Below the pieces are notes generated by a model, which saw only the letters and a program-made list of their open reading frames with translations, searched no databases and had not been told where the DNA came from. The position numbers and the translations under genes were made by a program. From the NCBI RefSeq assembly GCF_000372725.1, contig NW_005201551.1, positions 280,520-344,519 of the forward strand: 64,000 bases of DNA, written 5' to 3'. The DNA comes from Emiliania huxleyi CCMP1516. Its lineage: Eukaryota. Shown here piece after piece: positions 5,202 through 43,895 of the stretch (positions are counted from its first letter, which is position 1; the number at the start of each line of letters is the position of its first letter).

Positions 5202-6625
5202 TCATTCGAGGTAGATACCGCGCTCCTCGCACACGGCCACCAGCTCAGGCTGCTTCTTGTTGTCCACCCAGAGCGTCTGCACGCGAGGGGATGTGCGATG
5301 AGCATTGGGTGGGGGAGGGGCGTGTGGCGAGGGGTGGCGTCTCGCGCCTTCAAGCTCGGGGCGGCCCCCTCCTTGAGGGCGGCGGCCAGCGCCTTGCAGC
5401 CCTCGTCGCCAAGCTTGTTTTCGCCGAGAGTGAGCTCCTCGAGCCGCGGCGCTGCCCCCTCCTTGCCGAGGGCGGCGGCAAGCGCCTTGCAGCCCTCGTC
5501 GCCAATCTGGTTGTCGTAGAGGTAGAGCTTCTCGAGCCGCGGCGCTGCCCCGCTCGCGAGGACCTCCGCCAGCTGCGCCGCCTCCGCGTCGCCCCAGCCG
5601 AGGTTGGCGTAGCTCAGCTTGGTCGCCTTGCCAAACTGCTCCTCGAAGGCGGCCTCGTACAGCTGCTTCACAAGCGGCTTGTCGTCCTTGCCGTTGGTGA
5701 AGCTCTTCGACTCCAGCTCCGCCGCGAACGCAGACGGCAGCAGCGGAGGGCGCCGGCCGCCGTCCTTTCTGCAGTCGTCGACGAGGCGGCCGCAGTCGTA
5801 CTCCGTGCCGGCGCGCATCTTGCCGAGGTCGAGCGAGAGGAAGCCAGCCTTTGTCAGGCCCGCCCAGCTCTGCTCGGTGAAGCACCAGCCACGGTCAAAG
5901 TACTTGGCCACGTTGGTGCCCTCGGCCTGCTCCTCCGCCTTGTGGCCGTCCGGGAAGGAGGTCAGCCGCAGCACGAAAGTGTACTTGTGGGAGTAGAGCG
6001 TGCCGAGGCAGCCCAGCCCCTGCTTGAAGAGCGCGTTCTGCTCCTCGGTGCGCAGGACGCCGTTGGCGGGGTCGGGGTGCTGGTGCAGCGAGCCGAAGTC
6101 CCAAAACACGCCGAGCCGCGGGATGAGGGGTTTGCCGAGCGAGGGATGGTCGCTGAGCAGGGCCTTGAGCGCCCTTGCGACGCGGGAGAGGTTGGCTCCG
6201 CGCGGGTCGGGGTGGTCCTTGGTCAGCCACGGGTAGGAGAGCGCGGCGACGGGAAGGCTGCCATACTCGGTGGTCGCCTCGACGAGGTCGGCGAGGGAGA
6301 GGAAGGCCTCTTTGGGCAGCGCCTGGCGGTGGGCGAGGACGCCGCCCGCCTCGGCGTGGCGGATGATCCACTGCGCGTCGAGGAGGGCGGCGGCGCCGCT
6401 CGTGAGGACCGGCTCTAGGTCGCCGCCGCCCCACTTGCGCCACCCCTCCAGCATCGTCTCGCTCACGCCGAGATCGGTGGCAGAGGCCAGGGCGGTGGCC
6501 GGCTCCGCTTCGGCATTGGCTGGGATGGGTCCCTCTGCCCGCTCTTCCTGGAGTCCGCTGCTGATGGTACTAGCAAGACCGGCAAGGTCGTCGTATTCCT
6601 GCGGCCTGCTCGCATGGCAGCCCAT
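5202..6625 (-). CDS. HET/TIR-like domain + RI-type LRR protein, copy 1 (about 450 aa, N-terminal MGC)
   Basis: Exon 6625-5348, GC-AG intron 5347-5277, exon 5276-5202. Motifs ALSYPW, VFWDFGSLHQ, LGTLYSH, YFDRGWCFTE; LRRs such as LEKLYLYDNQIGDEGCKALAAAL. Confidence 0.85.
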
Positions 6626-6866
6626 TCCGCAACGCCGATGTAGCACTGGGAGGCGAGGGCGTTTCCGGCGTACAATGTAACGGCTTCACGACGCGCCTCG
6701 GTTTCTTATGTTTCGTGTGTCTTTCGTGCTTTTTTATATTACCCAAAAGCTAGGCCCACAACGCCCTCGTGCTTTTTTTCTTGGTGAGGACGCTGCAGAA
6801 TTTCTTTTTCTTCATCACCTGCAGGCCGCGCCGCCGCCTGTCGCCGCTCGCCGCACTCCGCCACCG

Positions 6867-7471
6867 ATGGACGAGGACGACGACTGCGACTGCAGCCCCG
6901 CCCGCGCCGACTGGACAAAGGGCGCCGCCGCTCTCGCCCTCGCCTCGGTCCTCCTCTTCGCCAGGCGTGCTGCAGCCCCGCCGCGCCCTCGCCGCCGCTG
7001 CCGCCTCCTCCTCCGCCTCGGCCGCTGCTGGACTCGTGCGCGGGCAAGCACACGCACCCATTCACCGCGCCGCCGCACTGATGGCCGGCACGCGGAAGAC
7101 AGTCCCACCGGCTGCCGTTCCTCTGTGTTGACCCGCCGCTTCGTCGCCTGCTGCCCCTTTGCAGCTCGTGGGACGTGCTCGAGCCGACCGAGTGGGGCGT
7201 CGTCCAGAACGGCTTCACCGGGTGCGCCGGCTCCTCAGTAGCGACTCTCATTAGCCCGCGAATGCACTCGGCCGCACCTTGTGTCAGCAGCGATCCGCCG
7301 TGCTCTGCGGCCGGCGCTCCCCCAGAAGCTCACGGCAGCCAGTCAGTCACGTTGTGACATACCTCCTAGAGGACGGGGCGGCCGGAGCTTGGACGGGCAC
7401 GGAGGACGGGAGGCACCTCCACGGAGGACGGGCACGCACACACACAACACACACACACACGCACACACACA

Positions 7472-7555
<84 letters not shown>

Positions 7556-10500
7556 CACACGCACGCGCGCGCGCACGCACTCACGCACGCACGCGCGCGC
7601 GCACGCACTCACTCACTCACTCTCACGCTGCGCACGACTGGCTCGGGAGCCGGCACGAGGCACGCGGTGTGACGGGCCGCATCGCTGGGTCCCGGACTGC
7701 TGCACACAATAGTTCCGCTCACAAGGGAGATGTTGGGAGATGCGGGGAGATGTTGGGAGATGTGGGGAGATATGGGCCCCGGACGATGGCACACACAAGA
7801 GCTCACAAGGGAGATGTGGGGAGATGTGGGGAGATGTGGGGAGACATGGGTCCCTGACTGCTGGACACAATCGCTCACAAGGGGCAGCTCGCGAGGTGGA
7901 TGGACGGCGCTATAGCCAGGGCGCTACACAGAGGGCGAAGCTCGCGCGGGCGCCGCAGTCTTGCCTCGAGCCCCCCCCCTCCCCCCCCCCTTTTGGCCCC
8001 TGCAGGTACGTGGAGCTCGACCCGGAGCGCGTGTTTGAAGGCGGCCGCCTGATATGGGGAGATCTGGGGAGATCTGGGGAGATGGAGCTCGGCGGCCTCC
8101 GACCCCGCCACCTATTAGTCGTTAATTCTGAAGGTGGTCATTAGCTGATAAGCCACCTCCGCCGCCCCCTCCCTCTCCAGCCTTCAGCCCGCCCCTGCGC
8201 CGCCGCCGCCCATCCCTCCGCCGCCGCCGCCCGCCCCTCCGCCGCCGCCTCTCTCTCGCCGCCTCCTGCCTCCCCACCACTCCCCTCCCGCATCTAGAGA
8301 GTGCTGCGCAGCGCCGAGGTCTCATTCACTTCTGCCCGCTCGCGAGGTCTCGAACACACTTCTCTAGCACGTATATGACGCGCCTCAGCATGAGTTCTTT
8401 CTTTCGTTTGATCAACCGCTTGGACGGTGCCATGACTAGAGCCGATCGAGCTGACGAGTGTTTGGGGAGATGATGGGGAGATATGGGGAGATATGGGCGC
8501 AGCTGCGACCGAATGACGAGCGCTATCGACGGAGAGTTGGGCGCCATCAGTTCAGGCGCGGGTTCAACTACTTCCACCACGCAAATNNNNNNNNNNNNNN
8601 NNNNNNNNNNNNNNNNNNNNNNNNNNNNNNNNNNNNNNNNNNNNNNNNNNNNNNNNNNNNNNNNNNNNNNNNNNNNNNNNNNNNNNATATGGGGAGATGT
8701 GGGGAGATATGGGGAGATCCAGCTGACGAGCGTTTGGTTGGAGTCAGGCGGGCGGCACTTCATCTGGCTGCGCCACTCCTTCATCAAGTTCCCGCGCCGG
8801 CACGTCAAACTCGAGATCTCCCCCATATCTCCCCATGTCTCCCCATATCTCCCCATATCTCCCGCACCGGCACGTCAAACTCGAGATCTGCTCTCCGGCC
8901 TGATAAAAACAGGGGAGTGAGATTGTCGTCGCCCCGATGATTCTCAGGCTCGCCAACCTCGAGTTCACTGTGTCAACGCGGAATTAATTTTAATTAGCTT
9001 AGCTCGTGAATCTCAGGCTCGTCAACCTCGAGTTCACTGTGTCAACGCGTAATTAGTTTTAATTCGTTTAGCTCGTGAATCTCAGGCTCGTCAACCTCGA
9101 GTTCACTGTGTCAACGCGTAATTAATTTTAATTAGTTTAGCTCGTGAATCTCAGGCTCGTCAACCTCGAGTTCTCCTTTTTTAACGACGAGCCGATGAGT
9201 AAACTATTGAATTCACGGGCCTCAGGCTCGTCAACCTCGAGTTCTCCGATTTTGGGCGCGGCGAGTCGGACCAGGCCGCCGCCGCCGCCCTCGCCTCCGC
9301 CTCCCTCGCCACCGCCCCCTTCCCCGCCTCCGCCCTCGCCTCCGCCTCCTTCGCCTCCTCCTCCCTCGCCTCCTCCTCCCTCGCCGCCTCCGCCTTCGCC
9401 TCCTCCCTCGCCGCCGCCCCAGCCAGCCTTTCAACTCGTACAGACCAGGCGGGAGGCTCTCATCGCCCTGTTACCATTCTTACTTACTCTCGTGAGGCTG
9501 TGAAAGCACGCCCAACCTAGCGCACTTGCACCCGAAGGCAAGTGCGTCTGTTCACAGCTCACGAGAGTAATGCTTACTAGGCTCCCATCTCGGCGCGCAC
9601 CGGCCCCGACCCCGACGACAAGGAGTCGGGCGGCCAGCCGATCCGGCGCTCGAGACTAGCCGAGATCCGCCGAGATCCGCCGAGGGTAGCCGAGGGTAGC
9701 CGAGGGTAGCCGAGGGTCGCCGAGAGGTTCGTCGAGATTTGTCGAGATTGGGCGGCTGCCAGTTCGCGCAAGCTCAAAACGACAGCCAGCTCATACTTAC
9801 CCTGCCCACTCTTCTCTTTGCACCCAATGCCACGGAGGGGCCGCCAGCTTGCTGACAAGGGAGATGCGGGGAGATGTGGGGAGATATGGGGAGATATGGG
9901 CCCCGGACGATGGCACACACAAGAGCTCACCAGGGAGATGTGGGGAGATAGGGGAGATATAGATCCCGGACTGCTGGACACAATAGCTCACGAGGTTAGC
10001 TGATTCTCACCCAGGCTCTGCGTCGCCTTCCAGTACCAGATTGCGAGGCGCGACGTGCCTCGGATCTACCAGACGTTTGGCGCGCCGCACGCGGCTGTCG
10101 CACGAGGCTGCCCCGCTGTGAACGGCGTTTCTTCACGGGTGGACGGTGCCGAAACAGGCGCGTTGCATGAGGCTTCGTACCTGCGCTTCGCCCAGCAGGC
10201 CGTTGCGCCGAGCAGCTTGCGGGCGCGCCTCTGAGCGTGCATCGAGAGCGGGCAGTTTTTTCTGTGTTTCAGGCCATCACAAACGAGGCGCAGATGTTCA
10301 CTCCGCGCGCGTTTTGGACGGACCGCAAGAAGGTGGAGGGGCAGCTGCTGGGCAAGGTGGCATGTCGCCGAGACGCCGCCAGAGATGCCGCCGAGAGCGG
10401 GAGGAGGGCAGCCGTGCGCATCGGAGTGGGCGAGGAGACGCCGCCGAGCCGGCGGCTCGGCAGCTTCCTTTTCTGCAGCCAAGTGGAGCCGTCGTCTCGG

Positions 10501-11446
10501 TGGGGCGGCCTTTGACCCTCACTGCCGAGGTGCTTCCAGTTTGCCATGGAAGGAAGCTGTCGCTTCTCTCGCTGCGCCCCCGCGGTGGTCCACGACTCAC
10601 CAGACAAAAAGACCCCCGAGAGGCGTGGCAGTGTTTCGCCGGCCTGATCGGCCCTCTTTCCGCCTCTTTCCGGCAGGTCAACGAGACGCTGTACCGCCAA
10701 GGCTACGCCACTGTCCACGACCTGCAGCTGCTGCGCGTCGACTTCAACTCAAACTACGAGGAGAGCCCGCTGCAGCGGAGGGCTGCAAGGCAGCGCTGTG
10801 TGCAAGAGGAAATCACACAGCTGCGTGGTGTGAACAGGACACCATCACCAACATCCAGCTGCAGGAGCAGCTCAAGGTGCTCGAGAGGGGCGATGCCGGA
10901 GGCGGACTTCGCCGCCCGCTCCGTCTTCATTCACAGCCTCCGTTCACAGGTGACCAAGACGTACCAGCTCGAAGTGACGCGGGTGAGCAAAGAGGTCGAC
11001 ATCCTGTCGGCAGAGGCGGAGGCGGCCATCGCGCGCATCAACGCGCAGGCGCAGCGCGAGGCGAGCGTCACGATCAACCAGGCGAGCGCTTAATTATTAA
11101 TTAGCTGTTAATTATTAATTAAGGCGTCACGATCAACCAGGCGAGCCCAATTAATGGTTCATTGAGCGAGCCTAAGTAATTAAAGCGTCACGATCAACCA
11201 GGCGAGCGCGGCGGCGATTCAGATGGAGCAAGGCGCAAAGGCGACATGGTGCGCCGCCCGGGCTTGTGAGTACGCGGCGCTGCGACGACGGCGCGGTCAC
11301 AGCGCGCCGTCGCGAGCAGGTATGCCAAGCTCAAGGCGACGCTCGGCTGGAGCAACGACGACTTTTTGCGCTACGTCAAGATCAAGTCGCTCAACGCGCA
11401 GCCGGGCGGTTCAGTGGTCATCGGCGTGGACGCTGTCGGGGGGTGA
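6867..11446 (+). CDS. SPFH/Band-7 (prohibitin/stomatin-like) membrane protein, multi-exon, spans N gap
   Basis: N-terminal hydrophobic stretch, then SSWDVLEPTEWGVVQNGFTG, HFIWLRHSFIKFP, ARTG..GQP, SVAFQYQI, AITNEAQMFTPRAFWTDR, LQLLRVDF, Ala/Glu coiled coil and YVKIKSL..VVIGVDAVGG*. Confidence 0.8.
8587..8686. other. Assembly gap (100 N); others at 29476-29575, 32163-32262, 42149-42248
   Basis: Runs of N. Confidence 1.
8944..9245 (+). repeat. Acceptor + exon-start tandem array, about 69-bp period, 5 copies
   Basis: TCAG|GCTCGTCAACCTCGAGTTC repeated with AT-rich spacers inside the SPFH gene. Confidence 0.85.
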
Positions 11447-13377: not shown

Positions 13378-13440
<63 letters not shown>

Positions 13441-17607: not shown

Positions 17608-19552
17608 TTATGGGCCGTCGAAGAGGCCGTCATACTCCTCCGGCCTCGCCCCCCCTTCCCAACCCTCCCCTGGCTCAGGCTCCTCATCCTCGCGGCGCGC
17701 AGTGCGCACCCCGCCCCGCGAAGACGAACCCTTCCGCCGGCGTGCCTCGCGGGACTGCCGCCCGCTGCCGCCGCCCTTCCCCCCCTCCGCTGCCCGCGCC
17801 GCCTTCTCCGCCGCCCGCGCGGCCGCCTTCGCCTCCTCCGCCGCTAACAGCGCCTCCCTCCGCGTGACCCCTATGGGCCCCTTGCGCATCCAGGAGAGGT
17901 CGCGCGAGCGACCTATCCAGGGGTTACTCGGATACGGCGCAACGTAGCCGCTGCGCAGCTCCGAGTAGTCGCCGAAGCCCCCCCCCAAATAGCCCTCCAG
18001 GCAAGCATCGCAGACCCACTCGCCTAGCTGAGAGATCTCAGAACTCTCGCCGCGCCAGATCTCCTTCTCCGCCGCCTCCATCTCCTCTCTCGACCAGCCC
18101 CCCAGCTCCGACCAGCCCTCACGCAACGCCCGGCGCCACAGCCACGGCTCCACGCCAAACTCGTCGTAAAAGCTCCCAAAGCACTGCTGACACTCGAGGC
18201 CTGGGCCTCGAGCGTCCGCCGCGGAAAGCTCGAGTGTGGGCGATGGCGCGAGCTGGGCCATGTACTGATTGCGTGTGACTGTTTCTGCCGTCTTTGAGGG
18301 GGCGTGGGCGTAGGAGTGGCGCTCTGCTACCCTTGCAGCCGAGCGCCTTCTCTCAGCTCCATTGCCTCTAGGGGGTTGTGGCCGTGGATTTGGCCCCCTA
18401 GCCCCCCTCTCCGAGAGCAGGCCTGTCCAGACTAGCGGAGTGTGGTGGCGTGTGTTTGTCGTGGCTCGCCTTGTGGTGGGAAGGTCGGGTGTCAGTGTGA
18501 GTGGGGTCGGTGGGACCTCATTCCTCGTCGCTTGCGCCATCGTGGCGGTGCCATTTGCTTTTGGCGGCCTCTGCTGAGCCGGGCGTGCCGGCGGCGGCCC
18601 GCTTTGCTGCTGAAGCAGGGCCCTTGCTCGGGACCGGAGTCGATGGCGCCTCGAGGTCCGACGATGGTACGCCTCGAGCCGCGCGCTCGGCGCGTGCCGC
18701 GCGCGCCGCAGCCATGCGCTGGGCGAGGTTGCTCTTCGGAGGCGACGCAGGCGCCACTCCCGAGCCGTCGTGCACGTAGAGGCAGCCAGAGCCGTTCGCG
18801 CATTTGGCGCCTGGGTCGAGCTCGAGCAGCGCTTCCGTCGCCGGCCCGAAGGCGCAGTTCGGGTACGGCATGCTGTGGACGCGGGCGCATCGGGGGGCGT
18901 CCAGCGAGGCGTTGGGGCATCGGCCCGCGAGGTGGTAGGGGCAGTCCCCTGCTCCAAGGGCCAGAGCGGACGGGATCACCCTCGCCTTTTTGGGTGGGCG
19001 AGAGCTGGGGTTGCGCTGCGGCTTGCAGCGGCCGCCTCCTCCTGCCAGGCAGAGACGGGCCTCTTTGTCTGAGGCGAGGCCTGCTGGCGGCGCGAGGTAG
19101 CCCTTGCAGCGGTGGCAGATCTTCTGTCCCGCCTCCCCCAGCACCTTGTAGCGGTGGTACCGCCCGCCGATGATGAGGAAGTCGGGCCAGGACGCTATCG
19201 CCGTGGTCTCGAAGTTGGCGAACCAGTTCGACCCATTACCGAGAGTAGGGACGAAGGTGATCTTGCCACTGCGTGGGTCCGTCTCTGCGCGTTTGAGCGA
19301 GTCCCGGGTGGGAGCGCGCACCACGTGCAGGCCGATGCTTTTGAGCGCGTCGGAGATGTTGTTGGCGTTGAGCAGGCGGGCCTGCTCAATGGTCTCTGAG
19401 AAGATGATCAGAGGTGTGGTCGGGGTCCGGACCTGGGCCGTCCTGGCATGCGCGACTCCGAATTCTCTGGCCGGCGGCCTCTCGACCAGCTCCACCGAGA
19501 GGGAGGTGCTCTTGATCACCGGCGGGTTGCCCTCGGCGGGGCCCTTGACTTG
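17608..19552 (-). mobile_element. Retroelement-like remnant: ORF1/gag-like ORF (19552-18518) with CxxC and two CCCH-like fingers, then a CxxC..CxxC ORF (18262-17608)
   Basis: Intronless; ICHRCKG, CPYHLAGRC..CARVH, CANGSGCLYVH; then CQQC..WVCDAC. No RT visible. Confidence 0.5.
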
Positions 19553-20147
19553 CACGTCACGCGATTTTTTGCAAAAATCTGGCGATATCTGTTCGGTATC
19601 TCGTGATATCTGTTTGTATCTCCCTGTACCTCCATATCTCGCTGTATCCCCGCATATCCCTGCAGTGGATACAAGCAAAAAATCCGGCCAGTGGAGGGGT
19701 GCTGTGAAGTTGAACCTTGAAGCGACGTGCCGCCATGCCCAAACATTTGGGCGCGGCACACGTGACCGCGCCAGCACACAGGACACATCGTTCATCGACA
19801 TGCAGCGCTACTGTACCTCCAGTCTCAGAACTCATCGCAGACTGGATAGCACTTTCCCAGTCACGAGTCCCATACTTCCCATCACTTGTACTCGGTGTGT
19901 GGTCTTCCGTCTTGCAGGCGCTCCGCGACTCGCGACTTGCGAGGAAGCGCCGCCCCCCGGGGTCTCGTCTCTCCGAACGGCGAACCTCTCGTCGGTCGTC
20001 GCTCGTGCAGGCCGTGCTATTTCGATCCCAGCGAGATCTCGCCTCACTCCCATCCTGTCGAACGCCCTCTCCATGCTTCTCTCCATGCTTCTCTCGCTGG
20101 ACGCTGCGATTCGAGGCCCTCCCGTCCCTCTCGCGCCCCCGTCTCTC

Positions 20148-26351: not shown

Positions 26352-26919
26352 ACCTTGTGATTTTGGGGTCAAAATCGTCCCGATTTCATAATGTTCGTTC
26401 GTACGTGCATCCGCGGCGCCCAGCGCGGTGCCAGCGGCTCCCATACCTCTAAGAGGCCACCCACCTCCGTATAGACCCTTATATCCGCGGTTTACGCCCA
26501 ATAGAGGCAGCTGCAAGAGGGCCCGGACGGGCACTGCGGCACACACTGCTCGCTGCTCGGCCATGCGGTAGCGTCTGGTGATGCCGCCCCTGCGCGGGCG
26601 GGGGCGTCTCGCTCGGCAGCAACTGCGCCGCGCAGCGCAGGTTCGAGGGTCGCGGTGGGTGGGTACACTGGAAGACGTAGCGGTCGAGAAAGCGCTCAGC
26701 GACCGCTACGTCTCGAGGATGGAGCCGTCGCGCGGACCCGACCGGCCGACCGGCAGTAGCAGCAGGCGCCGGAGGGCGCGGGAGGCAGCGGCGACACCTC
26801 GGGCCAGAAGCGCGAGCCCTAGGCTGGTGAGGGGGCCCGCTCATGCGTAAACGGCTCTGGGACTTAGCTAAATCGCGCATCGAAATCGGGACGATTTTGC
26901 CAGGGCACCGTCACAAGGT
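26352..26919. mobile_element. Second putative TIR element (568 bp)
   Basis: ACCTTGTGA..CAAAATCGTCCCGATTTC (26352-26387) is inverted against GAAATCGGGACGATTTTG..TCACAAGGT (26882-26919); no TSD seen. Confidence 0.65.
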
Positions 26920-27073
26920 CGCCTCTTCTTTGTTCGTGGTGTGCCGGTGATAGTACTAGCACGCGCCAGTTCGCACCTGTGTCGAGCCTGTCTGCTGTGA
27001 GAGAGAGTTGTTTTGTTTAAATTCTTTGTTCGAATGTTTTTCAATCCATCCTTCACGAAGCCCTCCCATGTAG

Positions 27074-28841
27074 CTAGCGTTCTTTGCGAATGTCTCGAGG
27101 TGGCCAGCAGGCGCTGTCTGCTCGCGGCCTGTGCGGGTCGCTCGTCCTCCTCGCGCTTCTTTCGTCCTCCCGTCCCTCCCCTCCACCATGGCCTCCTCGG
27201 CACTTCTTTCTCCATCCGCCTCGCCCTGCCTTTTCGTATCGTGCCGTTCGCCCTCCATTCGGTGACCTCCATGGCTGTCCGACTCTGTTTGGGTGGCGCT
27301 CTCGATACCGTTGCGTCAACCTCGACGTCGCTGTCGCCCTCCCCGTCCCCGTCGTCGCCCGTGCCTCGGTTCGCGTCATTGGTAGCGTTTCCGTTGCCCC
27401 CTCGTGTTCCGCCGTCGCCCTCTCTGCTCTGGCCGTTCGCGATTTTGAGGGTCGGGGGGCGAGACCGACACGCACCGTGTCGACGAAGATCGTCCCGAGG
27501 TGGTTCAGCTTGATCTGTGGGATGCCCTTGGGGTTGGTGTTGAAGGCGTCCACAAAGGCGTTCTTCTGGAGCTGCATGCGGTGGTGGGTGTTGGGAGTGT
27601 GGTGAGTTGAGAGGGTAGAGGGGGGGGGGGGGTAGCGCAGAAAAAGAAACCTCGTTGTGGAAGCCGAAGTAGGTCTTCGTCCTGTCGAGCTGGACGCCGT
27701 TGCGGTAGGCCATCGCGATGCCGTAGTGCTCGCAGAGGACGTACAGCCCCTTATTCAGGGACTCGCTCACGGACTGGTAGGTCTCGCCTTGGCCTGGGGC
27801 GGAGACGCGCTCGAAGTAGATCAGCGTCCCCTCCTCCGAGGATTTCGACTGGTCCATGGCCCATTTGACGGCGGGGGCGCACCTTGCCCGGATCTGCGGG
27901 AGGATCTCGACCATGAGCTTGGCGCCGCAGCCCGTCGTGATCATCTTGGAGGGCTTTGCGATGGCGATGGGGTCCTGCGCGTGGATTTGGTACGTTGTGA
28001 GTAGGGGATGGGTTCGGCCACTTGTGGGTATGGTGTGATTCGGCTTTTTGTGGGTGTGGCGGATTGAGAGTCTTAGTAGGTGGAGGGTATGGGCGTTCCT
28101 GTTTGACGCCGCCGCGGTCGACGTGGATCTCGCAGTAGTACGTCTGGGAGGAAAGCTGCAGGGCCTCGCCTCCGAACGCCTTGATCACGTTCTTGCGCAG
28201 GTTGGCGATCCCGAGCGAGCAGCCGCGCGGCACCTTGAACTGGCTCACGAGCGCGTTGTGGACCTCGCCCTCGTCGATGGACCCGAGAAGGGCGCCCGGC
28301 TGGGGTGGGGCGGACAGGCGAAGGTGGAGGTCGTAGGGGTCGGGCTTGTTTCGGTCGATCTTGACGGGGACCGAGTCGTCCACGGCGTCGTCGACGTCGG
28401 CGACCGAGAAGACGATCGTGCCGCCGTCCGGGATGTCGTTGGGGTCCCCTGCGGGAAGGGGGGCGGGGAGGGGGGGGGGGAGAGAGGGGGGGTGAGGAGA
28501 GAAGAAAAGAAACCGAAGGGCAAGTGGTTTGGCTGTCCGCCTCCCAGGAACTTCTCGACGAAGTAGGAGTTGATCGTCGTCGTGGCCCCGATGGTGGCGA
28601 TGGAGGAGGCCATGGACTCAAACGTAAATCCGTCCGGGAGGTCGCCGAGAAGGTAGAAAGTGGAGTTCCTGCCATGCTGCAGCATGAGCTTGTGCTCGAA
28701 CTCGTCGTGGCCCGCCTCGATGAACATCGCGGAGACGATCGTGGCGACGTGCTCGGCGTTGATGCCGTTGCCGGTCTTCATCACCAGCATCTTCTCCTTG
28801 AAGGGCGTGTCGGGGACGTCGAGATTCATGTCCTGACACAT
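27074..28841 (-). CDS. Orphan multi-exon protein with short simple introns, possibly TE- or virus-borne; 3' end uncertain
   Basis: Frames join via introns 28540-28449, ~28100-27975 and 27650-27572 (..VEKFLG|GDPND.., ..FHNE|LQKN..); balanced amino-acid composition and high GC3. Confidence 0.7.
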
Positions 28842-29575
28842 GCAGGGTGGAAACTATATGAGTTGCCAGGAGTGAGGTTTGTAGGAGAGCCGCGTGGCGC
28901 GGCGGTTCGGGGCTCGGTTTTGGGTGGATGGGCCTGGGTTCGAATCGGGCTCGCGGAGCGTCGCGGGCGCGTGGGTGCGTGGTGCGTGTGCAGTGCAGCG
29001 AGCGAGCGAGCGAGAGAGAGAGAGAGAGAGCAGGGCTTCTCTCTTTTGTCTCGCCGCGGCTGTTTCCTCTACCGCGTGTCGGTCGTCATCTCGGGGTCTG
29101 TTTGGTGAGGGCATTGGCGGGCGTCGGAGTGTAGGTGGGCTCTGGTGGAGCTGTGTATTTGGTCTGTGCACAGGCGCTTTTTGTCGTGTGCGCGGCACGC
29201 GTGCACTGCGGGCGCGCGCGCCTTGAAGATGCCCGTCGGATAGCCGACGCCGGCCGTCTCGTCGGTGCGGGAGCGCTTCGGCGAGGTTGGTTCGCTGCGC
29301 GACATTGGGAAGGTGCCCGAAGGCAGGGTCCAGGGAGGTTTAGTCCGCCTCGCGGAGCGAGACTTAGAGAAAACCTCGGAGATGTGAATTTAACATATAT
29401 TTTCCATAGACACCACGTACGCTCGAGTCTCGAAGCTCACGACTGCCCTCCCCCGCAGCCTCGGCGCCTCAGTCGNNNNNNNNNNNNNNNNNNNNNNNNN
29501 NNNNNNNNNNNNNNNNNNNNNNNNNNNNNNNNNNNNNNNNNNNNNNNNNNNNNNNNNNNNNNNNNNNNNNNNNNN

Positions 29576-30663
29576 TCGCCAATCTTGTTGTTGCCGTTGA
29601 GATAGAGCACCTCGAGCCGCGGCGCTGCCCCGCTCGCGAGGACCTCCGCCAGCTGCGCCGCCTCCGCGTCGCCCCAGCCGAGGCCGGTGTAGTCCAGCTC
29701 GGTCGCCTTGCCAAACTGCTCCTCGAAGGCGGCCTCGTACAGCCCCTTCACCAGCGGCTTGTCGTCCTTGCCGTTGGTGAAGCTCTTCTTCTCCAGCTCC
29801 GCCGCGAACGCAGACGGCAGCAGCGGAGGGCTCCGGCCGCCGGCCTGGGTGCAGTCCTCGATGAGGCTGCCGCAGTCGTACTCCACGCCGTCGCGCGTCT
29901 TGCCGAGGTCGAGCGAGAGGTAGGCGGCCTTTGTCAGGCCAGCCCAGCTCTGCTCCGTGTAGCACCAGCCGCGGTCAAAGTACGCGGCCACGTTGGTGCC
30001 CTCGGTCTGATCCTCCGCCTTGTGGCCGTCCGGGAAGGAGGTCAGCCGCAGCACCCAAGTGTGCTGGTGGGAGTAGAGCGTGCCGAGGCAGCCCAGCCCC
30101 TCCTTGAAGAGCGCGTTCTGCTCCTCGGTGCGCATGACGCCGTTGGCGGGATCGGGGTGCTGGTGCAGCGAGCCGAAGTCCCAAAAGACGCCGAGCCGCG
30201 TGATGGAGCTGAGCAGGGCCTTGAGCGCCCTCGCGACGCGGGAGAGGTTGGCTCCGCGCGGGTCGGGGTGGTCCTTGGTCAGCCACGGGTAGGAAAGCGC
30301 TCCGACGGGAAGCCAGTCATACTCGGTCGCCTCGACGAGGTCGGCGAGGGAGAGGAAGGCCTCTTTGGGCAGCGCCTGACGGTGGGAGAGGACGCCGCCC
30401 GCCTCGGCGTGGCTGATGATCCACTGCGCGTCGAGGAGGGCGACGGCGCCGCTCGCGAGGACCGGCTCGAGGTCGCCGCCGCCGAGCTTGCGCCACAGTT
30501 CCAGCTTCTCCTCATCGACGCCGAGATCGGTGGCGGAGGGGAGGGCGGCGGCCGGCTGCGTCGGCGCGGCGGTGTCGGCGGGCGTCGGGGCGTCGAGTTC
30601 GACGGCGGGAGGGCCGGGCAGCTCCTCGGTCGGGGCCTCGACGCGGCTGGAGACGCAGCCCAT
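29576..30663 (-). CDS. HET/TIR-like + LRR protein, copy 2 (runs into N gap)
   Basis: ATG 30663 MGCVSS; same motifs as copy 1; appears identical to copy 3. Confidence 0.8.
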
Positions 30664-31390
30664 CGTGAGAAGTCGATCGACTTTGACAAGGACACAGGTG
30701 GAAAAGAATTCAACGCGGCACGCGACAGTACCAAAAGAGGAACACTCGATCGCGTCGCCTACACGAAGGCGTCGAGGGGGGGACAGTTTATTTCTTTTTT
30801 TGAGCTTAGCCTTCGATGTTAGGAAACAAAGCAAGGCGGGACATGGCATATCGCTCTCGGGCTCACAGACATCCCTCACACCCGCCGCCCCCGCGCGCGC
30901 CCCACCCCGGCCGGGAGAGAGGGGAGTGACAGTTTGGGACGGCGACAGCCCGAGTATGTTGAGTCCTGGCTCAACAACGCAGGGTTCAAGAGGGGGTGGT
31001 CCGGCTCACAAGTCCGGCTCACGCGCCTCGAGCTGACCATCTACCGCACTGAGCACTTCCGCCCCCTCGCTCCCAACCCATCCACCCCGCCCCGGGCCGC
31101 GCCGCGCGATCTCGGGCGATCTCGGGCGATCTCGGGCGATCTCGGGGCCGCGCCGCGCTATCTCGGGTGATCTCGGAGCGTCGCTCGCGCGGCGTCACAC
31201 CTGCTCAAAAAGGAAGGAGGTTGGAGGCAGGAGGTCACGCCCCATCCAGAGCGCCGTCGTCGCCGGGTTTTTGGCCCCCGGGTCGTCGCCTGACGGTTGC
31301 TGCGCGGGGCAGCAGACCATCGGACGGCGCGACGACGCCCCGTCCGGCACGCTCCCCCCTCCACCCGGCTATTGCCGCACGAGTGCCCTA

Positions 31391-33748: not shown

Positions 33749-35040
33749 TCAGCAGAGGTTGATGCCGCGCTCCTTGCACACGGCCACCAGCTCAGGCTGC
33801 TCCGTGTTGTCCACGTAGAGCTTCTGCACGCGAGGGGAGGAGCGATGAGCATTGGGCGGGGGAGGGGCGTGTGGCGAGGGGGAGCGTCTTGCGCCTTCAA
33901 GCTCGGGGTGCCCCCCTCCTTGAGGGCGGCGGCCAGCGCCTTGCAGCCCTCGTCGCCAATCTTGTTGTTGCCGTTGAGATAGAGCACCTCGAGCCGCGGC
34001 GCTGCCCCGCTCGCGAGGACCTCCGCCAGCTGCGCCGCCTCCGCGTCGCCCCAGCCGAGGCCGGTGTAGTCCAGCTCGGTCGCCTTGCCAAACTGCTCCT
34101 CGAAGGCGGCCTCGTACAGCCCCTTCACCAGCGGCTTGTCGTCCTTGCCGTTGGTGAAGCTCTTCTTCTCCAGCTCCGCCGCGAACGCAGACGGCAGCAG
34201 CGGAGGGCTCCGGCCGCCGGCCTGGGTGCAGTCCTCGATGAGGCTGCCGCAGTCGTACTCCACGCCGTCGCGCGTCTTGCCGAGGTCGAGCGAGAGGTAG
34301 GCGGCCTTTGTCAGGCCAGCCCAGCTCTGCTCCGTGTAGCACCAGCCGCGGTCAAAGTACGCGGCCACGTTGGTGCCCTCGGTCTGATCCTCCGCCTTGT
34401 GGCCGTCCGGGAAGGAGGTCAGCCGCAGCACCCAAGTGTGCTGGTGGGAGTAGAGCGTGCCGAGGCAGCCCAGCCCCTCCTTGAAGAGCGCGTTCTGCTC
34501 CTCGGTGCGCATGACGCCGTTGGCGGGATCGGGGTGCTGGTGCAGCGAGCCGAAGTCCCAAAAGACGCCGAGCCGCGTGATGGAGCTGAGCAGGGCCTTG
34601 AGCGCCCTCGCGACGCGGGAGAGGTTGGCTCCGCGCGGGTCGGGGTGGTCCTTGGTCAGCCACGGGTAGGAAAGCGCTCCGACGGGAAGCCAGTCATACT
34701 CGGTCGCCTCGACGAGGTCGGCGAGGGAGAGGAAGGCCTCTTTGGGCAGCGCCTGACGGTGGGAGAGGACGCCGCCCGCCTCGGCGTGGCTGATGATCCA
34801 CTGCGCGTCGAGGAGGGCGACGGCGCCGCTCGCGAGGACCGGCTCGAGGTCGCCGCCGCCGAGCTTGCGCCACAGTTCCAGCTTCTCCTCATCGACGCCG
34901 AGATCGGTGGCGGAGGGGAGGGCGGCGGCCGGCTGCGTCGGCGCGGCGGTGTCGGCGGGCGTCGGGGCGTCGAGTTCGACGGCGGGAGGGCCGGGCAGCT
35001 CCTCGGTCGGGGCCTCGACGCGGCTGGAGACGCAGCCCAT
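33749..35040 (-). CDS. HET/TIR-like + LRR protein, copy 3 (about 406 aa)
   Basis: Exon 35040-33895, GC-AG intron 33894-33824, exon 33823-33749 (KLYVDNTEQPELVAVCKERGINLC*). Confidence 0.85.
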
Positions 35041-35727
35041 CGTGAGAAGTCGATCGACTTTGACAAGGACACAGGTGGAAAAGAATTCAACGCGGCACGC
35101 GACAGTACCAAAAGAGGAACACTCGATCGCGTCGCCTACACGAAGGCGTCGAGGGGGGGACAGTTTATTTCTTTTTTTGAGCTTAGCCTTCGATGTTAGG
35201 AAACAAAGCAAGGCGGGACATGGCATATCGCTCTCGGGCTCACAGACATCCCTCACACCCGCCGCCCCCGCGCGCGCCCCACCCCGGCCGGGAGAGAGGG
35301 GAGTGACAGTTTGGGACGGCGACAGCCCGAGTATGTTGAGTCCTGGCTCAACAACGCAGGGTTCAAGAGGGGGTGGTCCGGCTCACAAGTCCGGCTCACG
35401 CGCCTCGAGCTGACCATCTTGCCCGCTCCCGCCCGCTACACGCGGTCCAATATTACCTGAGATTACCCGAGATTACCCGAGATTGCCCGAGATTACTCGA
35501 TATCGCCCGAGATCGCGAGTAGTGTTTGTTTGTGTTTGTGTGCGCGCGTGTGTGCGTGTGTGTTTGCGTGTGTGTGTGTGTGTGTGTAAGTGCCCACACT
35601 CCCCGACTACACGAGGTCCAATATTACCTGAGATCACCCGAGATTACCCAAGATAACCCGAGGTACAGATCACCCGAGATCTCCCAAGATTACCCGAGAT
35701 TACCCGAGGTTACTATCAGTGCGTGTG

Positions 35728-35798
<71 letters not shown>

Positions 35799-35931
35799 GT
35801 CTGTCTTTCCCTGTGTGTGTGTGTGTGTGTGTGTCCATGCGTGCGCGTGTTGCGTCACATGTGAATGTTGTACAACAGCCACTATCGCGGGGGCGCCTAC
35901 ACGAAGGCGGGCAACATTCTTTTTTTCGGAA

Positions 35932-38900
35932 ATGCTGCTCTCCTGTTTGGCGCTGTCGCCGTCCGACGCCTCGCCGACGCCGGCAGGCCGCGGTGAGCCA
36001 TCAACCACGCCTCCGCGCGCCGCGCTGCCGCTGCTGCTTCCAGAAGCCGCCTCCACCAAATTGGTGCCAAAGTCCCGCCGTAGTAGCCGCGGGCGATGTT
36101 TGCAACACTGGACGTAGAGCGGCACGGCGGCGATGACCCGGGCGCTTCAGAGGGCCTCTGGCCACCGTACACACACACATTCACAAGCAAGTACACACAG
36201 GCACCGCGCCTCAGCCGCGTCGGTACATGCAGGCGCTGCAGCCCGAGGCGCTGGACTACGTCGCTGGCCTGCGCGGGCCGGTGGCGGTGGTGGCAGCGAT
36301 CGGCCAGTACCGGAGCGGCAAGTCGTTTCTGCTCAACCAGCTGATGCGGCTCAACTGCAGCGAGGGCTTCCAGGACACTTTCATAGACATGTCACAACAA
36401 CCGCGGCTCCAGGACACTTAAAAACATAGACAGCTCACAAAGCACCGCGGCTCGAGGCCACTCTCGTAGACAGTTCACACTCCAGTCACACACACGTGCG
36501 GGACCGGTCACGCGCACATGTACATGTGAGGCGCCTCCGGTGCACGCCTCCATTGCCCAATGCATCCCTCATCCGTCTCTTCACACGCCGGTGGCCGCGA
36601 GCAGGTCGGGCACCGGCGGGATTACCCGAGATTACCCGAGATTACCCGAGATTACCCGAGATTACCCGAGCAGGTCGGGCACCGGCGGGACGCGCAGACC
36701 AAAGGAGTGTGGCTGTACGGGCAGCGCGCCGAGGCGTTCGGAGGCCCCGGAGGCGCCACGGTCCTCTTTCTTTAATTGTTTAACGAGTCGCACTTGACTA
36801 ACCACAGGGGAATTGAGTACAGGCGCCACGGTTCTCTTTCTCGACTCCGAGGGGTTCGAGGGGACGGGGAAGGCGGCTGCGTACGACGACCGCATCTTTG
36901 CGTTTGCGGCGCTGTCCGCTGCGGCTCGGGTAATCTCGGGCAATCTCGGGTAATCTCGGGTAATCTCGAGCAGGTGCTGTCCGCGGCGGCGGTGCTCATT
37001 CTAGGAACCTTCTAGGAACCTTCAGGAGCCTTCTAGGGTACTTCTAGGTGCTGTCCGCGGCGGCGGTGCTCTACAATCTGGTGGAGGGCCGTCCGAGAGG
37101 CGGCGCTTTCAATGATAACCAATGAATGAGTTCGTTTTCATTGTATGAAAGGTGGAGACTACTCGAGAGGGGCGGCGCCCTTTTAGTTCACTCTCAAGTA
37201 ACGAATCGCCTTTCCTTAAATGAAAGGTGGAGACCATCCGAGAGGCGGACATCGCGAAGCTGGCCTTCGCTGTTAATTAATAATTAGTTAAAGGCTCTGA
37301 TAATTAATTACAGGCGGACATCGCGAAGCTGGCCTTCGCCGCGCAGCTGGCGTCGGAGTTCTGGCGCCGCACTAGCGGCGAGGCGGGCGGAGGAGGCGGG
37401 GGAGAGGGCGAGGGCGGCGGCGGCGAGGGGAGCGACAGTGGCGATGGCGGCGGCGGCGAGGAAGGCGGAGGGAAGGGTCGCGGCACGGCGCGGCGGCGGT
37501 GGGCTCCTCCTGCAATGCTCTGGCGTGTGCAGCGCCGACGTCTTTAAGTCATTAACGAATCGTGATGAATTAATTGGAGGGAATTGAGTCCAGGCGTGTG
37601 CGACGTCTTTAATTAGTTAAACCAATCGTCCCTATCTAATCAGAGGTGGTTAGTCACAGGCTTGTGCAGCGCGACTTCTTGCAAGGAGGGTCGGTGGAGG
37701 AGTATCTGCGGCAGGCGCTTAGTTATTACTAAGGGTAATGAATTAAGGGTCATGAATTAAGGGGAATTAATTAAGGTCGGTCGAGGAGTCCTTGCGGCAG
37801 GCGGCTCAATGAACTAATTACTACCCCTCCATTAAGGGTACTTAATTGAGGTGGAGGAGTCCTTGCGGCAGGCGCTGCAGCCGGTCTAGCCGCCTAGAAG
37901 CAGACATACGTATTCTTACACTCCAACAAGCGCTCGAGAGACGTACTCAGCCGTATGATTCGGCCGTGTTCACTGTAGTCGCCCCCCTCGTATTCAAACG
38001 GTGCTCTGAAGACGCTGCACAGTACCGCCTTCCCGCCCCCGAGGTTGTTGGCGGATTCGTGACTTGTAGGTCGAGCACGCTCCGACGGACGCGCAGGCGG
38101 GGCAGCCGAGAGTACCCGAGAGGACCCGAGAGGACCCGAGAGGACCCGAGAGGACCCGAGAGGACCCGAGAGGACCCGAGATTACCCGAGAGTACCCGAG
38201 AGGAGCCGAGAGTACCCGAGAGTACCCGAGAGTACCCGGGATTGTCCGAGACGCCCAGGCGAGGCAGCTCTGACTCGGTGTTAGCTAGCTGTGAACTCGT
38301 TGTGAACTCGTTGTGAATTCGTTGTGAACTCGTTGTCAACTCGTTGTCAACTCGTTGTCAACTCGACGCGCAGGCGGGGCAGCTCAACGCCATCCGCCGC
38401 ACACTGCGCTCCTTCGGCGGCATGCGCGGCCTCGGCTTACCGCAGCCCCACCCTTCCCGAACGTCCCTCTGCGACCTCCCGCCCGATCAGCTAGCGGCAG
38501 AGTACCGGGCGGGCATGCAGGCTGTGCGGGAGTGGGTCGGTTCTGTTGCGCAACGGCGGAGGAGGCGGGCGCCGGCGGCGGAGGCGGAGGCGGAGGCGGA
38601 GGCGGAGGCGGAGGAGGCGGAGGAGGCGGAGGCGGCGGAGCGGCCAGTTGCGTCACGCGTTGGGACGACTGCAGCAGACGCGATGGCGATGGCAAATGGG
38701 AATGGGAGGGTGTGGGGCAGTGGCAAGGAGCTGGCGGGGGCGGTGCGGAAGCTGGTGGAGGCGCTCAACGCCAACGCCATCCCGACGGCCGGCTCCGTCA
38801 TCGACTCTTTCAACAACGAGGCGATCCCGTTGATTAATTATTGATTACAGAGGCAGTGATGAAATGATCAACAGATTGACTCGTTCAACAACGAGGCGAC

Positions 38901-39648
38901 CCCGTTGATGAATTATTGGTTACAGAGGGCAGTTATGAAATGATCAACAGATTGACTCGTTCAACAACGAGGCGATCCCGTTGATGAATTATTGATTACA
39001 GAGGCAGTTATGAAATGATCAACAGATTGACTCGTTCAACAACGGGGCGATCCCGTTGATGAATTATTGATTACAGAGGCAGTTATGAAATGATCAACAG
39101 ATTGATCTCCTTCATTGTCAAGACGAGTTGTGAAGAGTCGATGGCTGATTAACTACTCACTGACGCCTTCCACAACGAGGCACTCGTTGTTAAGATTCGA
39201 CGACGCACTAACTCACCCCTACTGGCGCCGTCCACAACCAGGCCCGCGCGACGGCGCTGGCGACGCTGCGGGCGGATGCCGAGAAGAGCGTTCCGCTGCA
39301 GCCCGACGAATTGTGGTCGTTCACGCCGCCGGTCGTTCACACACAGGCGGATGCGGAGGCGCTCCCGCTGCCGATGGTCGAGGCTCGGCTCGCCTCCTCC
39401 CTCGCCGCCTCCGTCGCCGCCGCCGAGCGGGCGCTGCGCCGGCGCGTGTTTGGCGGGGGGGCGGGGGGGGGGGGGGGGCCCCTGAAATTAATGAATATTA
39501 ACTCCTACCCCTTTTAATTCATAGGCCCCTGTTTGGCGGGGGGGCGGGGGGGCGGCTGGCGGCGGCAAACATGGCGGCGGTCCCTAAAGCGGCCGGCGAG
39601 AGGTAGCCGAGATGGCGTCGAGATATAGCGGGGATTGAGGAGGGGAGG

Positions 39649-39682
<34 letters not shown>

Positions 39683-39707
39683 CAGAGAGAGAGAGAGACA
39701 GAGAGAC

Positions 39708-39764
<57 letters not shown>

Positions 39765-42147
39765 CAGAGAGACAGAGAGACAGAGAGACAGAGAGACAGA
39801 GAGACAAACAGTTATTGAAACGTATTCAGGCGACGCCAACTTCCGCGCGTCACACGCCCAGTGCCGCCTGCTCTGGTCTCGCTGCGCCGCCTCCCTCGCC
39901 GCCCTCCGCGCCGTGTTGCTGCCCTCCCGCCGCCGCTTCCACGCGCGCGTCGAGCGCTGCAACGACACATTGAGGTTTATTATTATCATTGCTACTGTTG
40001 TTGTTGTTGTTGTTATTACTATTATGATTAGTGGCATCACTATTTCTTATCATCGCTGTTTATTGGTATTCATGAGCATCGCTACTTACTATTGCCATTA
40101 CTCTACTGTGATTGTGATCCTCACTGTTGTTGTTATATTGTTACCATTCTGATTGTTGTCATTCCTACTTTAGCGGCTGCGTTGGGCCGGCGGCGGCGGA
40201 GTATCACGAGAGGCTGGCGCTGGAGGCGGGGAAGGGCGAGGAGGAGTTCAATGCGCGCTTCCACGGCCAGCTGTCCCACGCCCTCTTCCTGTTGTGCGTT
40301 GGCGGCATCCTCACCTTCTGCGACGTGGTCGTGAGCGCACTGATGAATCTTAACTAATAATTAATGAGTATTAATTCATAGGCATCCTCACCTTCTGCGA
40401 CGTGGTCGTGAGCGCACTGATGAATCTGAACTAATAAGTAATGAGTATTAATTCATAGGCATCCTCACCTTCCGCTACGTGGCCGTGAGCGCCTTAATGA
40501 ATCTTGATTAATATCAATTAGTATTCATGCATAGGCATCCTCACCTTCCGCTACGTGGCCGTGAGCGCATTAAATAATCTGAAGATTGATCTTAATAATT
40601 CAATTCATAGGCATCCTCACCTTCCGCTACGTGGCCGTGAGCGCCTTAATGAATCTTGATTAATATCAATTAGTATTCATTCATAGGCATCCTCACCTTC
40701 CGCTACGTGGCCGTGAGCGCATTACACAATCTGAAGATTGATCTTAATAATTCAATTCATAGGCATCCTCACCTTCCGCTACGTGGCCGTGAGCGCCCTC
40801 GCCGAGGTGGGCTGCCGGCTGCTGCTGCCTTAAGAGCTGGGGCCGCGTCCTGTGACCGCGTGATCCGGTGTGATCTGGTGTGACCACAGGTCGGCTGCTG
40901 GCTGCTGTTAATTAATAGCAATCAAGATGAACTAATCTCGGCCGATCTCGCGGAGGTGGGCTGCTGGCTGCTGCTGGCGTCGGTGGAGCTGCTGCCCAGG
41001 CTGGCCAAGCTTTAAATAAATAAATAAAAACGGACACCTCTCTACTGTGAGATGGGTAAAAAGGAACAGGTCCCCGCCCTTGCGATCTTTGTGCAGGGTT
41101 CTTTGTTGGCCAAGCCAAGTTTTGCTTCTCAGATAGATTGGCATCCATAATCACTATGATACGAGTTAATGAGCTCAAGCTGCGTCTTCGCAGGCTGGCT
41201 GCGCTCGCCCAGTTCTCGCCCGTCGCCGCAGCTACTGCGTCGGTCTGGGAGATATGGGGAGATATGGGGAGATACGGGGAGATAGTGTCCCCCCATCCCC
41301 AGGGCCTTCAGGGCTCACACCTCACCCTCTCACAGACCAGCTCGCAGCGCCATAGGACGTATTTCCTTCTCAACAACAAGGCGTGTGAATAGGTCTGGGA
41401 GACGGCGGCGGGGAAGGTGGCTGTCGATTGGTACGAAGGCGATTAATTAATTGGGCGATGAATTCAGATTTATCAATTAAAGGCGGCTGTCGAGTGGTAC
41501 GAGGCGATTAAATCAGTGAATTGGGCGATGAATTCATATGTGTCAGTTAAAGGCGGCTGTCGAGTGGTACGAAGGCGATTAATTAATTGGGCGAGTAATT
41601 CAGATTTATCAATTAAAGGCGGCTGTCGAGTGGTACGAGGCGATTAAATCAGTGAATTGGGCGAGTAATTCAGATTTCTCAGTTAAAGGCGGCTGTCGAG
41701 TGGTACGAGGCGGTGGTGTTCAATCCGGTGGCGGATTTGGACAACCTGCTGCTGCCGCTGGCCGCCGGCCTCCTCGCCGTCTGCACTGCGCGATACTGCC
41801 GCCGCTGCGCGCGCGCCACGCGCCGCTGGCGAGGGCGATCAGCTGGCGAGATGCAGCCGAGATGCAGCCGAGATGCAGCCGAGATGCAGCCGAGATGCAG
41901 CCGAGATGCGGGCGAGATGCGGCCGAGATGCAGCCGAGATGCAGCCGAGATGCGGCCGAGATGCAGCCGAGATACACCCGTTGCAGCCGATGTACGCCCG
42001 CCCGAGAACGCCCGAGATGATCCGAGATCACCCGAGATTTCCGAGCTCAGGCAGCTACCGGCACGTCGGCGGCGGCGACGACGACGACGACGAGGAGGAG
42101 GAGGACGATCTCTCGGGGTCGAGGCACGTCTCCGGTCGCTGGCCTGA
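35932..42147 (+). CDS. Guanylate-binding protein/atlastin-family GTPase with C-terminal TM segments
   Basis: PVAVVAAIGQYRSGKSFLLNQL (G1), QTKGVW (G2), FLDSEGF (G3), DDRIFAFAAL, LWLVQRDF, LPQP; hydrophobic segments at ~40280, 40770 and 41750. Confidence 0.9.
37884..38069 (+). mobile_element. Introner-like intron, copy A (GBP gene)
   Basis: GCCTAGAAGC..AGCGCTCGAG..CGGTGCTCTGAAGAC.CTGC..CCCGCCCC..TAG; starts GTCTAGC, next exon starts GTCGAGC. Confidence 0.8.
38803..39110 (+). repeat. About 75-bp tandem array, 4 copies, intronic
   Basis: GACTCGTTCAACAACGAGGCGATCCCGTTG plus AT-rich spacer. Confidence 0.9.
40304..40797 (+). repeat. Acceptor + exon-start array, 7 copies, 76-77 bp period
   Basis: GGCATCCTCACCTTC..ACGTGG.CGTGAGCGC at 40304, 40381, 40458, 40534, 40610, 40686 and 40762; spacers end CATAG. 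Confidence 0.92.
41414..41712 (+). repeat. Acceptor + exon-start array, 5 copies, 66/70 bp alternating period
   Basis: AAGGCGGCTGTCGAGTGGTACGA repeated with AT-rich spacers. Confidence 0.9.
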
Positions 42148-43106
42148 CNNNNNNNNNNNNNNNNNNNNNNNNNNNNNNNNNNNNNNNNNNNNNNNNNNNN
42201 NNNNNNNNNNNNNNNNNNNNNNNNNNNNNNNNNNNNNNNNNNNNNNNNTTTCCCCCCCCCCTTTTTTCCCCCCCCCCCCCCCCTCCCTCCCCCCCCCCAT
42301 CCTCCTCCAGCCCTTTCCCCGCCGAGGAACAACATTCACTTAGCGGCGCGCTAAATTCTTAACGACTCGACTACTGCGCAGGACGACGGGATGTGGACAA
42401 GATGTGGTCGAAGCTCCTCGAACATCTCCCCTCCCAGTCAAAGCGGGTTGAGCCCCCTTCCCTTAATTCACAGCTCGAGGCTCGGTGGCTCTTGACACGT
42501 CCTGGGAGTCTCTCGGAGTAACTCTCGTCCATCTCTCAATAGGCCAGCTGTCGCGGCTCGAGCGGGCCTCCCGCCCCACCAGCCCGGGAGAGGTGGAGCT
42601 GCTGCCTCGCGCGGCGTGAGGCTACACACCACGGCTTTACACCATGCGAGGTCACTCGAGAGTACACATACGCGACGAGTACGCGGGAGGATGGTGCGTC
42701 GTTATCCGATGACGACCGAGCGACCGGCACCCTCCCGGCGCACCGGTGCCGGTGCCGGTCCGCGCGCTGCAGCGCACCTCCTCGCCCTCCCCCCTCTCTT
42801 TCCGATGTCTGGTACGATTACAAAAAGTCTGGTTTGTAGAGTGTTGGTACGCCACGTCTCCCTCGCCCCTCGGCCTCCCTCCCCCGCGCGCACGCGCGCC
42901 AAAGATGAATGGCAATATGGCCAATGCGCACAAGCCACAACACATCTGGGCAACGCGCAAGCAATGAAGGTTCATCTGTGCATGATTGTGGGTGACTCTG
43001 ACTAGCTGCACACGCGGCCGTGCCGGTCTGTGACGCTCTCTGCCGAGCTCGCACGGCGGTCCCGCCGGGCCCCGCGCCCTCGCCACCCGGCCGGGGCTGG
43101 AGAGGC

Positions 43107-43895
43107 TCAGCAGAGGTCGATGCCGCGCTCCTCGCACACGGCCACCAGCTCAGGCTGCTTCTTGTTCGGGTAGCCCACCTCGAGCTTCTGCACGCGACGG
43201 GAGGCGCGATGAGCATTGGGCGGGGGAGGGGCGTGTGGCGAGGGGGGGAGGCGTCTCGCGCCTTCAAGCTCGGGGCGGCCCCCTCCTTGAGGGCGGCGGC
43301 CAGCGCCTTGCAGCCCTCGTCGCCAATCTTGTTGCCGCCGAGATAGAGCGTCTCGAGCCGCGGCGCTGCCCCGCTCGCGAGGACCTCCGCCAGCTGCGCC
43401 GCCTCCGCGTCGCCCCAGCCGAGCATGCCGTAGCCCAGCACGGTCGCCTTGCCAAACTGCTCCTTGAAGGCGGCCTCGTACAGCCGCTTCACCAGCGGCT
43501 TGTCGTCCTTGCCGTTGGTGAAGCTCTTCGTCTCAAGCTCCGCCGCGAACGCAGACGGCAGCAGCGGAGGGCGCCGGCCGCCGTCCTGGATGCAGTCGGT
43601 GATGAGGTTGACGAAGTCGTACTCCACGCCGGCGCGCATCTTGCCGAGGTCGAGCGAGAGGGTCCAGGCCTTTGTCAGGCCAGCCCAGCTCTGCTCGGTG
43701 TAGCACCAGCCGCGGTCAAAGTACTTGGCCACGTTGGTGCCTTCGGCCTGGTTCTCCGCCTTGTGGCCGTCCGGGAAGGAGGTCAGCCGCAGCACCCAAG
43801 TGTGCGGGTGGGAGTAGAGCGTGCCGAGGCAGCCCAGCCCCTGCTTGAAGAGCGCGTTCTGCTCCTCGGTGCGCAGGACGCCGTTGGCGGGGTCG
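43107..43895 (-). pseudogene. HET/TIR-like + LRR protein, copy 4, 5'-truncated
   Basis: Homology begins at DPANGVLRTEEQ; upstream is replaced by repeat sequence (43896-43930, matches 53688-53720); same terminal GC-AG intron. Confidence 0.8.

Follow-up and report, generated by a model that had tools for sequence, protein, structure and literature searches.

A 64,000-nucleotide window of the Emiliania huxleyi CCMP1516 genome (NW_005201551.1:280,520-344,519, forward strand; all coordinates below are window positions) carries members of a protein family in which a HET/TIR-like domain is directly followed by leucine-rich repeats (LRRs). The exposed face of these LRRs is under diversifying selection, as in NLR-like receptors, and the family is real, expressed and rapidly diversifying. 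Judged from sequence, its members appear to be TIR/HET-type immune proteins that lack a nucleotide-binding oligomerization domain (NOD), with a putative enzymatic activity and a putative ligand. A first-pass annotation had reported four paralogues. Four minus-strand loci are indeed present where they had been placed, but copy 2 is identical to copy 3 (29576-31042 versus 33953-35419; blastn, 100% over 1,467 bp, 0 mismatches) and copy 4 is truncated at its 5' end, which rules out four independent intact paralogues. The window holds two distinct intact genes (copies 1 and 3, of the same plan), one duplicate (copy 2) and one fragment (copy 4). Because of its identity to copy 3 and because it ends at a 100-N gap (29476-29575), copy 2 is probably an assembly duplicate, or else a very recent duplication.

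The evidence for selection comes from the LRRs. Among 46-50 E. huxleyi-type proteins (collected partly by regular expression), the x positions of LxxLxLxxN show 2.3-3.6 bits of entropy, and the flanking framework is nearly fixed. Codon alignments combined three copies from the window (1, 3 and 4) with 13 metagenome loci, after removal of L064 as a duplicate of L063. The ratio of nonsynonymous to synonymous change (dN/dS) is 4.3 at nine exposed codons, against 0.43 for the 43 codons of the framework and 0.79 for the domain (eight full-length sequences). At the exposed codons it reaches 5.0 when the three window copies are taken by themselves. In eight disjoint pairs, counted along the most-synonymous path, the proportion of nonsynonymous differences (pN) at exposed sites, 0.557, exceeds both the synonymous proportion (pS) at the same sites (0.359, p=0.025) and the gene-wide pS (0.156, p=6e-28). 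These are pairwise counts rather than fits of a codon site model, the loci are a mix of alleles, paralogues and strains, and the exposed set was chosen after entropy had been viewed. Exposed pS is itself raised, and two or three bases differ in 37 of the 72 comparisons of exposed codons; saturation, short gene conversion or local mutagenesis may be responsible. Chrysochromulina-type genes, whose repeat number ranges from 2 to 10, give corresponding values of 2.2 at exposed and 0.24 at framework codons (40 unique repeats, 17 genes). Neutral amplification alone is ruled out because it would not produce, in each of two lineages, a framework that hardly changes together with exposed sites whose pN is over three times the pS of the whole gene.

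The description of an expanded family holds up. At least 42 E. huxleyi-named entries are among the matches listed, 36 with the full core and 33 with all three motifs. The true number of loci may be lower, since the CCMP1516 assembly is known to contain allelic duplicates, or higher, since the entry count is a lower bound. The domain alone matches 2,496 clusters (50% identity clusters, E<=0.001), and among its named relatives are Chrysochromulina tobinii and a dinoflagellate, Prorocentrum cordatum. Matches in the ESM Atlas are confined to unnamed haptophyte clusters, and no named family emerges there when the LRRs are skipped. In a FastTree phylogeny of 63 selected proteins, one shallow clade unites 25 E. 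huxleyi entries (support 0.84) and another unites 9 Chrysochromulina-type entries (support 1.0), which indicates two independent expansions. Two family genes also stand in tandem on one Chrysochromulina-type contig (L051:766 and L051:2791).

Most distant members also carry LRRs, with LRR_6 present in 47 of 67 and 50 of 72 proteins of two sets; a few bear EF-hands, Sel1, ankyrin, PDZ or kinase domains. As had been claimed, a P-loop is missing: its pattern matches a single protein among 318 of the family, and neither NACHT nor NB-ARC is among the Pfam families listed. Within these scans, an NLR with a hidden NTPase is ruled out, and the central NACHT/NB-ARC NTPase of NLR (STAND) receptors has no counterpart here. 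The LRR C-terminus is supported by LRR_6 matches in copies 1, 3 and 4, but the array is short, with three repeats and a cap in copy 1 and two and a cap in copies 3 and 4. An MGC start is found at 6625, 30663 and 35040 but is not universal, occurring in 13 of the 36 core-complete E. huxleyi entries listed (MG in 15 of 36). Among Chrysochromulina-type genes, 9 of 17 start with MG.

The domain is likely enzyme-like, of the TIR/HET kind, and probably a distant relative of TIR immune enzymes. It contains a near-invariant Ser/Asp/Gln/Glu constellation, and the glutamate of WCxxE, whose conservation had been predicted, is present in 136 of 137 sequences of alignment A2 and in 281 of 285 of a larger set. 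In the predicted model this residue (E251 in copy 1) lies in the helix at model positions 194-206, after strand 165-168, matching enzymatic TIR domains, in which the glutamate is in the helix after strand C. The proposed TIR relationship survives in part. The TIR profile aligns colinearly and places E251 in the TIR glutamate column, but the match is not significant (hhalign 7.8-9.6%; 6 of 40 shuffles equally good), and the predicted fold resembles the flavodoxin-like core of the TIR/SEFIR/NDT clan at weak Z only. PDB sequence searches with a single protein and with a profile gave no matches at E<=10, Foldseek found nothing at E<=0.001 in the PDB or among viral models, and the Pfam scans have no TIR row among the families listed. 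Some patches of the otherwise conserved copy 1 domain are variable (e.g., L167, F262, G279, D283 and D288), with up to 7 residues in 8 sequences; these patches may extend the recognition surface.

Fungal HET domains carry ALSY.W, W.D..CI.Q, M..IY and R.W..QE in this order. All four family counterparts (ALSYPW, FWDFGSLHQ, LGTLYS and RGWCxxE) occur, as annotated, in the 5'-intact copies 1-3. Identification as HET (PF06985) by Pfam failed, however. There is no HET row for the four window proteins (E<=1), for 35 members of set A1 or for six distant members (both E<=5), and HET is absent among the 25 families listed of 38 (set A4) and of 88 (set A5). HET membership is therefore suggested by motif order. 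Nine matches to a short HET motif were rejected as chance matches rather than HET sequences.

A bacterial relative was found from a weak tblastn match (E=0.04); a first pattern scan of prokaryotes had found none, and neither three pattern scans of viral contigs nor phage records yielded any. This Pseudanabaena plasmid protein (WP_126390537.1) keeps all motifs and aligns with the family at 98% in hhalign (E=3.6e-13 in its record). Three further cyanobacterial loci were identified. In Myxacorys, the HET-like gene lies in a defence island (L084:4052-12966), flanked on one side by a pair made up of SLOG cluster 3 and ThsB/TIR and on the other by a PIN pair, TPR, an HSP90-like ATPase and ThsB-TIR with PDC-M50A. 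L080 and L082 also have the TPR and the ATPase as neighbours; the neighbours in L082 (TPR, HSP90-like, ThsB-like) are similar by translation only. Because the four loci are close relatives, they count as one context. The gene is rare, occurring in 1 of 401 sampled cyanobacterial genomes, which is the seed itself; PF06985 occurs in none of the 401. The model of the cyanobacterial domain is poor (pLDDT 52, from 12 sequences), so any comparison built on it is weak.

Expression was assessed in runs that are presumed to be RNA, none being recorded as such, with contigs placed on the window at 92% likeness. Contigs of three of the four runs join the ends of the predicted copy 1 intron, and many more joints share the donor but continue into different downstream sequence, as expected of spliced paralogues. 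Given the presumed nature of the runs and this level of likeness, the copy 1 joint counts as evidence for the family rather than for this copy. A single contig of low depth covers the 5' part that is unique to copy 1.

Expression in virus infection, as had been envisaged, applies to one relative. In a transcriptome study (PMC12489294, Table S2), transcript 373cFLNC_44630096, whose best match is EMIHUDRAFT_231496, falls in virocell-upregulated cluster 3, with log2 fold changes of 6.84, 6.85 and 6.40 at T1-T3 (baseMean 13); uninfected controls do not change significantly. EMIHUDRAFT_231496 belongs to the family: it shares 67% identity with copy 1 and retains the glutamate.

That these proteins are immune sensor-effectors, as originally suggested, is in our judgment quite probable. 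Diversifying selection on the LRR face, the infection-induced relative, the defence context of the bacterial homologues and the near-invariant glutamate all argue for it; the fold is TIR-like at weak Z only, and the HET assignment is one of motif order. A complete mechanism, in which one chain joins sensing to Glu-dependent cleavage and a defence outcome, is moderately likely. In this scheme, the MG(C) N-terminus would be acylated (a prediction), tethering many members at the membrane. The foreign protein bound by the LRR face would differ from paralogue to paralogue and would probably be viral, such as one from an E. huxleyi virus (EhV), and binding would release or cluster the domain without an ATPase switch. 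E251 would then cleave an N-glycosidic bond, most likely that of NAD+, and NAD+ depletion or an ADP-ribose-type signal would restrict infection or kill the cell. Several observations weigh against this antiviral scheme: the other 34 of 35 family identifiers do not appear in the infection table of PMC12489294 (a positive control worked), the induced EMIHUDRAFT_231496 is not part of the fast-evolving clade, and the eight members of its 90% identity cluster that cover the exposed residues do not differ there.

These absences would suit proteins that serve self/non-self recognition (mating type, gamete fusion or allorecognition in the haplo-diploid cycle) or sense bacteria or grazers. Fungal HET proteins do work in allorecognition, including non-NLR fusions in which a variable C-terminal domain sets specificity (PMC10890737), and selection on the LRRs does not give the identity of the ligand. 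Nevertheless, one member is the best match of an infection-induced transcript, the bacterial homologues lie near anti-phage genes, and induction is not required of a constitutive sensor, so we regard a non-viral role as unlikely. Slightly less probable still is that the same sensor-effector design employs an NDT/DNPH1/MilB-type N-glycosidase acting on nucleosides or nucleotides rather than NAD+, for example to starve a giant virus of dNTP precursors. The NDT profile, built from only six sequences, gives no signal (its score of 9.4 is exceeded by 36 of 40 shuffles), whereas TIR aligns colinearly and the xxSY/SH, xxD and WCxxE motifs match the TIR pattern. A non-immune family of membrane-anchored signalling or housekeeping enzymes, multiplied in a repeat-rich, redundantly assembled genome, would accommodate the duplicate, the fragment and the relatives with EF-hands, kinase, PDZ or ankyrins, but is very improbable because neutral copying cannot yield the exposed-site pattern described above.

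A broader and more tentative extension of the sensor-effector reading is that haptophytes and dinoflagellates possess a thousands-strong class of NOD-less immune receptors, in which a HET/TIR-like NAD+-cleaving enzyme is joined to two to ten hypervariable LRRs. In E. huxleyi it would comprise dozens of variable sensors alongside a conserved member that is induced by virus, the ancestry would be shared with a rare bacterial defence-island protein, and the class would provide the specificity in the arms race between E. huxleyi and EhV.

The features of the four loci are collected below. Spliced copy 1 encodes 450 aa, 97% identical to E. huxleyi CCMP1516 EMIHUDRAFT_114844, and a GC-AG intron of 71-74 nt precedes the stops at 5202, 33749 and 43107. 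Copy 4, a probable pseudogene by its sequence, retains only LGTLYS and RGWCxxE. It begins downstream of FWDFGSLHQ, behind unrelated sequence, and therefore lacks the Ser, Trp, HPDP, Asp and Gln motifs, half of the conserved residues. The sequence in place of its 5' half (~43900-44500) has heavy contig coverage in four runs and may be a repeat or mobile element responsible for the truncation.

Table 1. Positions of family features in the window
Feature	Position	Strand	Description or evidence
Copy 1 exon 1	5348..6625	-	426 codons: MGC start, low-complexity linker, HET/TIR-like domain, 3 LRRs
Copy 1 HET/TIR-like domain	5645..6430	-	262 aa; conserved S130, W133, D140, D176, Q182, H213, R245, W247, E251
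Codon of E251, predicted catalytic glutamate (copy 1)	5873..5875	-	Residue conservation
Copy 1 LRRs, hypervariable exposed positions	5348..5626	-	LRR_6 match, entropy, codon analysis
Copy 1 intron	5277..5347	-	71 nt, GC-AG; joint 5276/5348 in contigs of X1, X2, X7
Copy 1 exon 2	5202..5276	-	Capping repeat and stop, 25 codons
Copy 2	29576..30663	-	Same as copy 3; broken off in second LRR by N gap; probable assembly duplicate
Copy 3, intact gene	33749..35040	-	406 aa, 2 LRRs and cap; exon 1 33895-35040, GC-AG intron 33824-33894, exon 2 33749-33823
Copy 4, 5'-truncated fragment	43107..43898	-	Exon 43262-43898, intron 43188-43261, exon 43107-43187; lacks first three motifs

Elsewhere in the window, 28 of 30 neighbouring open reading frames have no Pfam match, so there is no defence cluster to report. 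One frame (46199-47623, plus strand) has a family 4 glycosyltransferase domain (Glyco_trans_1_4, E=3e-11; weak GT4-conflict), and two long frames on the minus strand (18521-19807 and 26871-28184) lack Pfam matches; a retroelement origin for these is a guess only. Multi-exon transcript joints lie between copies 3 and 4 (~35900-41700), among them 36370/36671, 36750/36821, 39968/40172 and 41252/41686. Minisatellite-like tandem arrays with units of ~74-81 bp occupy 55640-56087, 57273-58101 and 40304-40799.

Giant viruses terminate E. huxleyi blooms, and the family, with its clear arms-race signature, is a candidate recognition repertoire for strain-specific virus resistance. Nine to fourteen codons per gene could be scored against virus host range. 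The small, confidently modelled proteins and the bacterial homologue also offer material for settling whether HET-type domains are enzymes; the biochemistry and structure of HET are stated to be undetermined in PMC10197012, PMC10890737 and PMC12881547. No description of the family was found in the literature searched, where coverage of subscription papers is thin, and the accessible parts of two preprints (bioRxiv 10.64898/2026.09.21.753143 and 10.64898/2026.04.30.722052) do not mention it.

Among known systems, fungal HET proteins (PF06985; HET-E, TOL, BH1) share the motif order. Like the E. huxleyi family, they form large variable gene families and include non-NLR fusions with a variable C-terminal recognition domain (PMC10890737). 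The domain is slightly larger here (~260 aa versus 220-240 aa; PMC12881547), and the family differs in lacking a listed Pfam HET row and in having an extra HPDP motif, N- and C-terminal extensions and an N-terminal MG(C). Its partner is an LRR of the ribonuclease inhibitor type, whereas fungal NLRs are described as lacking LRRs (PMC4986451). Section 16 of the same paper already describes homologues of HET from Haptophyceae, its alignment including one sequence from E. huxleyi, and notes the similarity of HET to TIR.

Plant TIR-NB-LRR receptors and enzymatic TIRs (SARM1, SpbK, ThsB) have an alpha/beta core that the predicted fold of the family resembles at weak Z, with a glutamate in the helix after the third strand, and the plant receptors are also similar in diversifying selection on the LRR face. 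In the same organism, under the name G. huxleyi, 15 TIR genes with a proposed antiviral role have been reported from a conserved-domain search (PMC12489294). According to that paper, these encode no NBS or LRR, and none has a sensor domain; the family described here is invisible to such models. The ROCO-LRR and NB-ARC-TPR candidate receptors of Ectocarpus (PMC3341825) are likewise algal birth-and-death families with diversifying selection on their repeats. However, they use a GTPase or NB-ARC and encode each repeat in its own exon, whereas the E. huxleyi proteins carry their repeats in one exon behind an enzyme-like domain.
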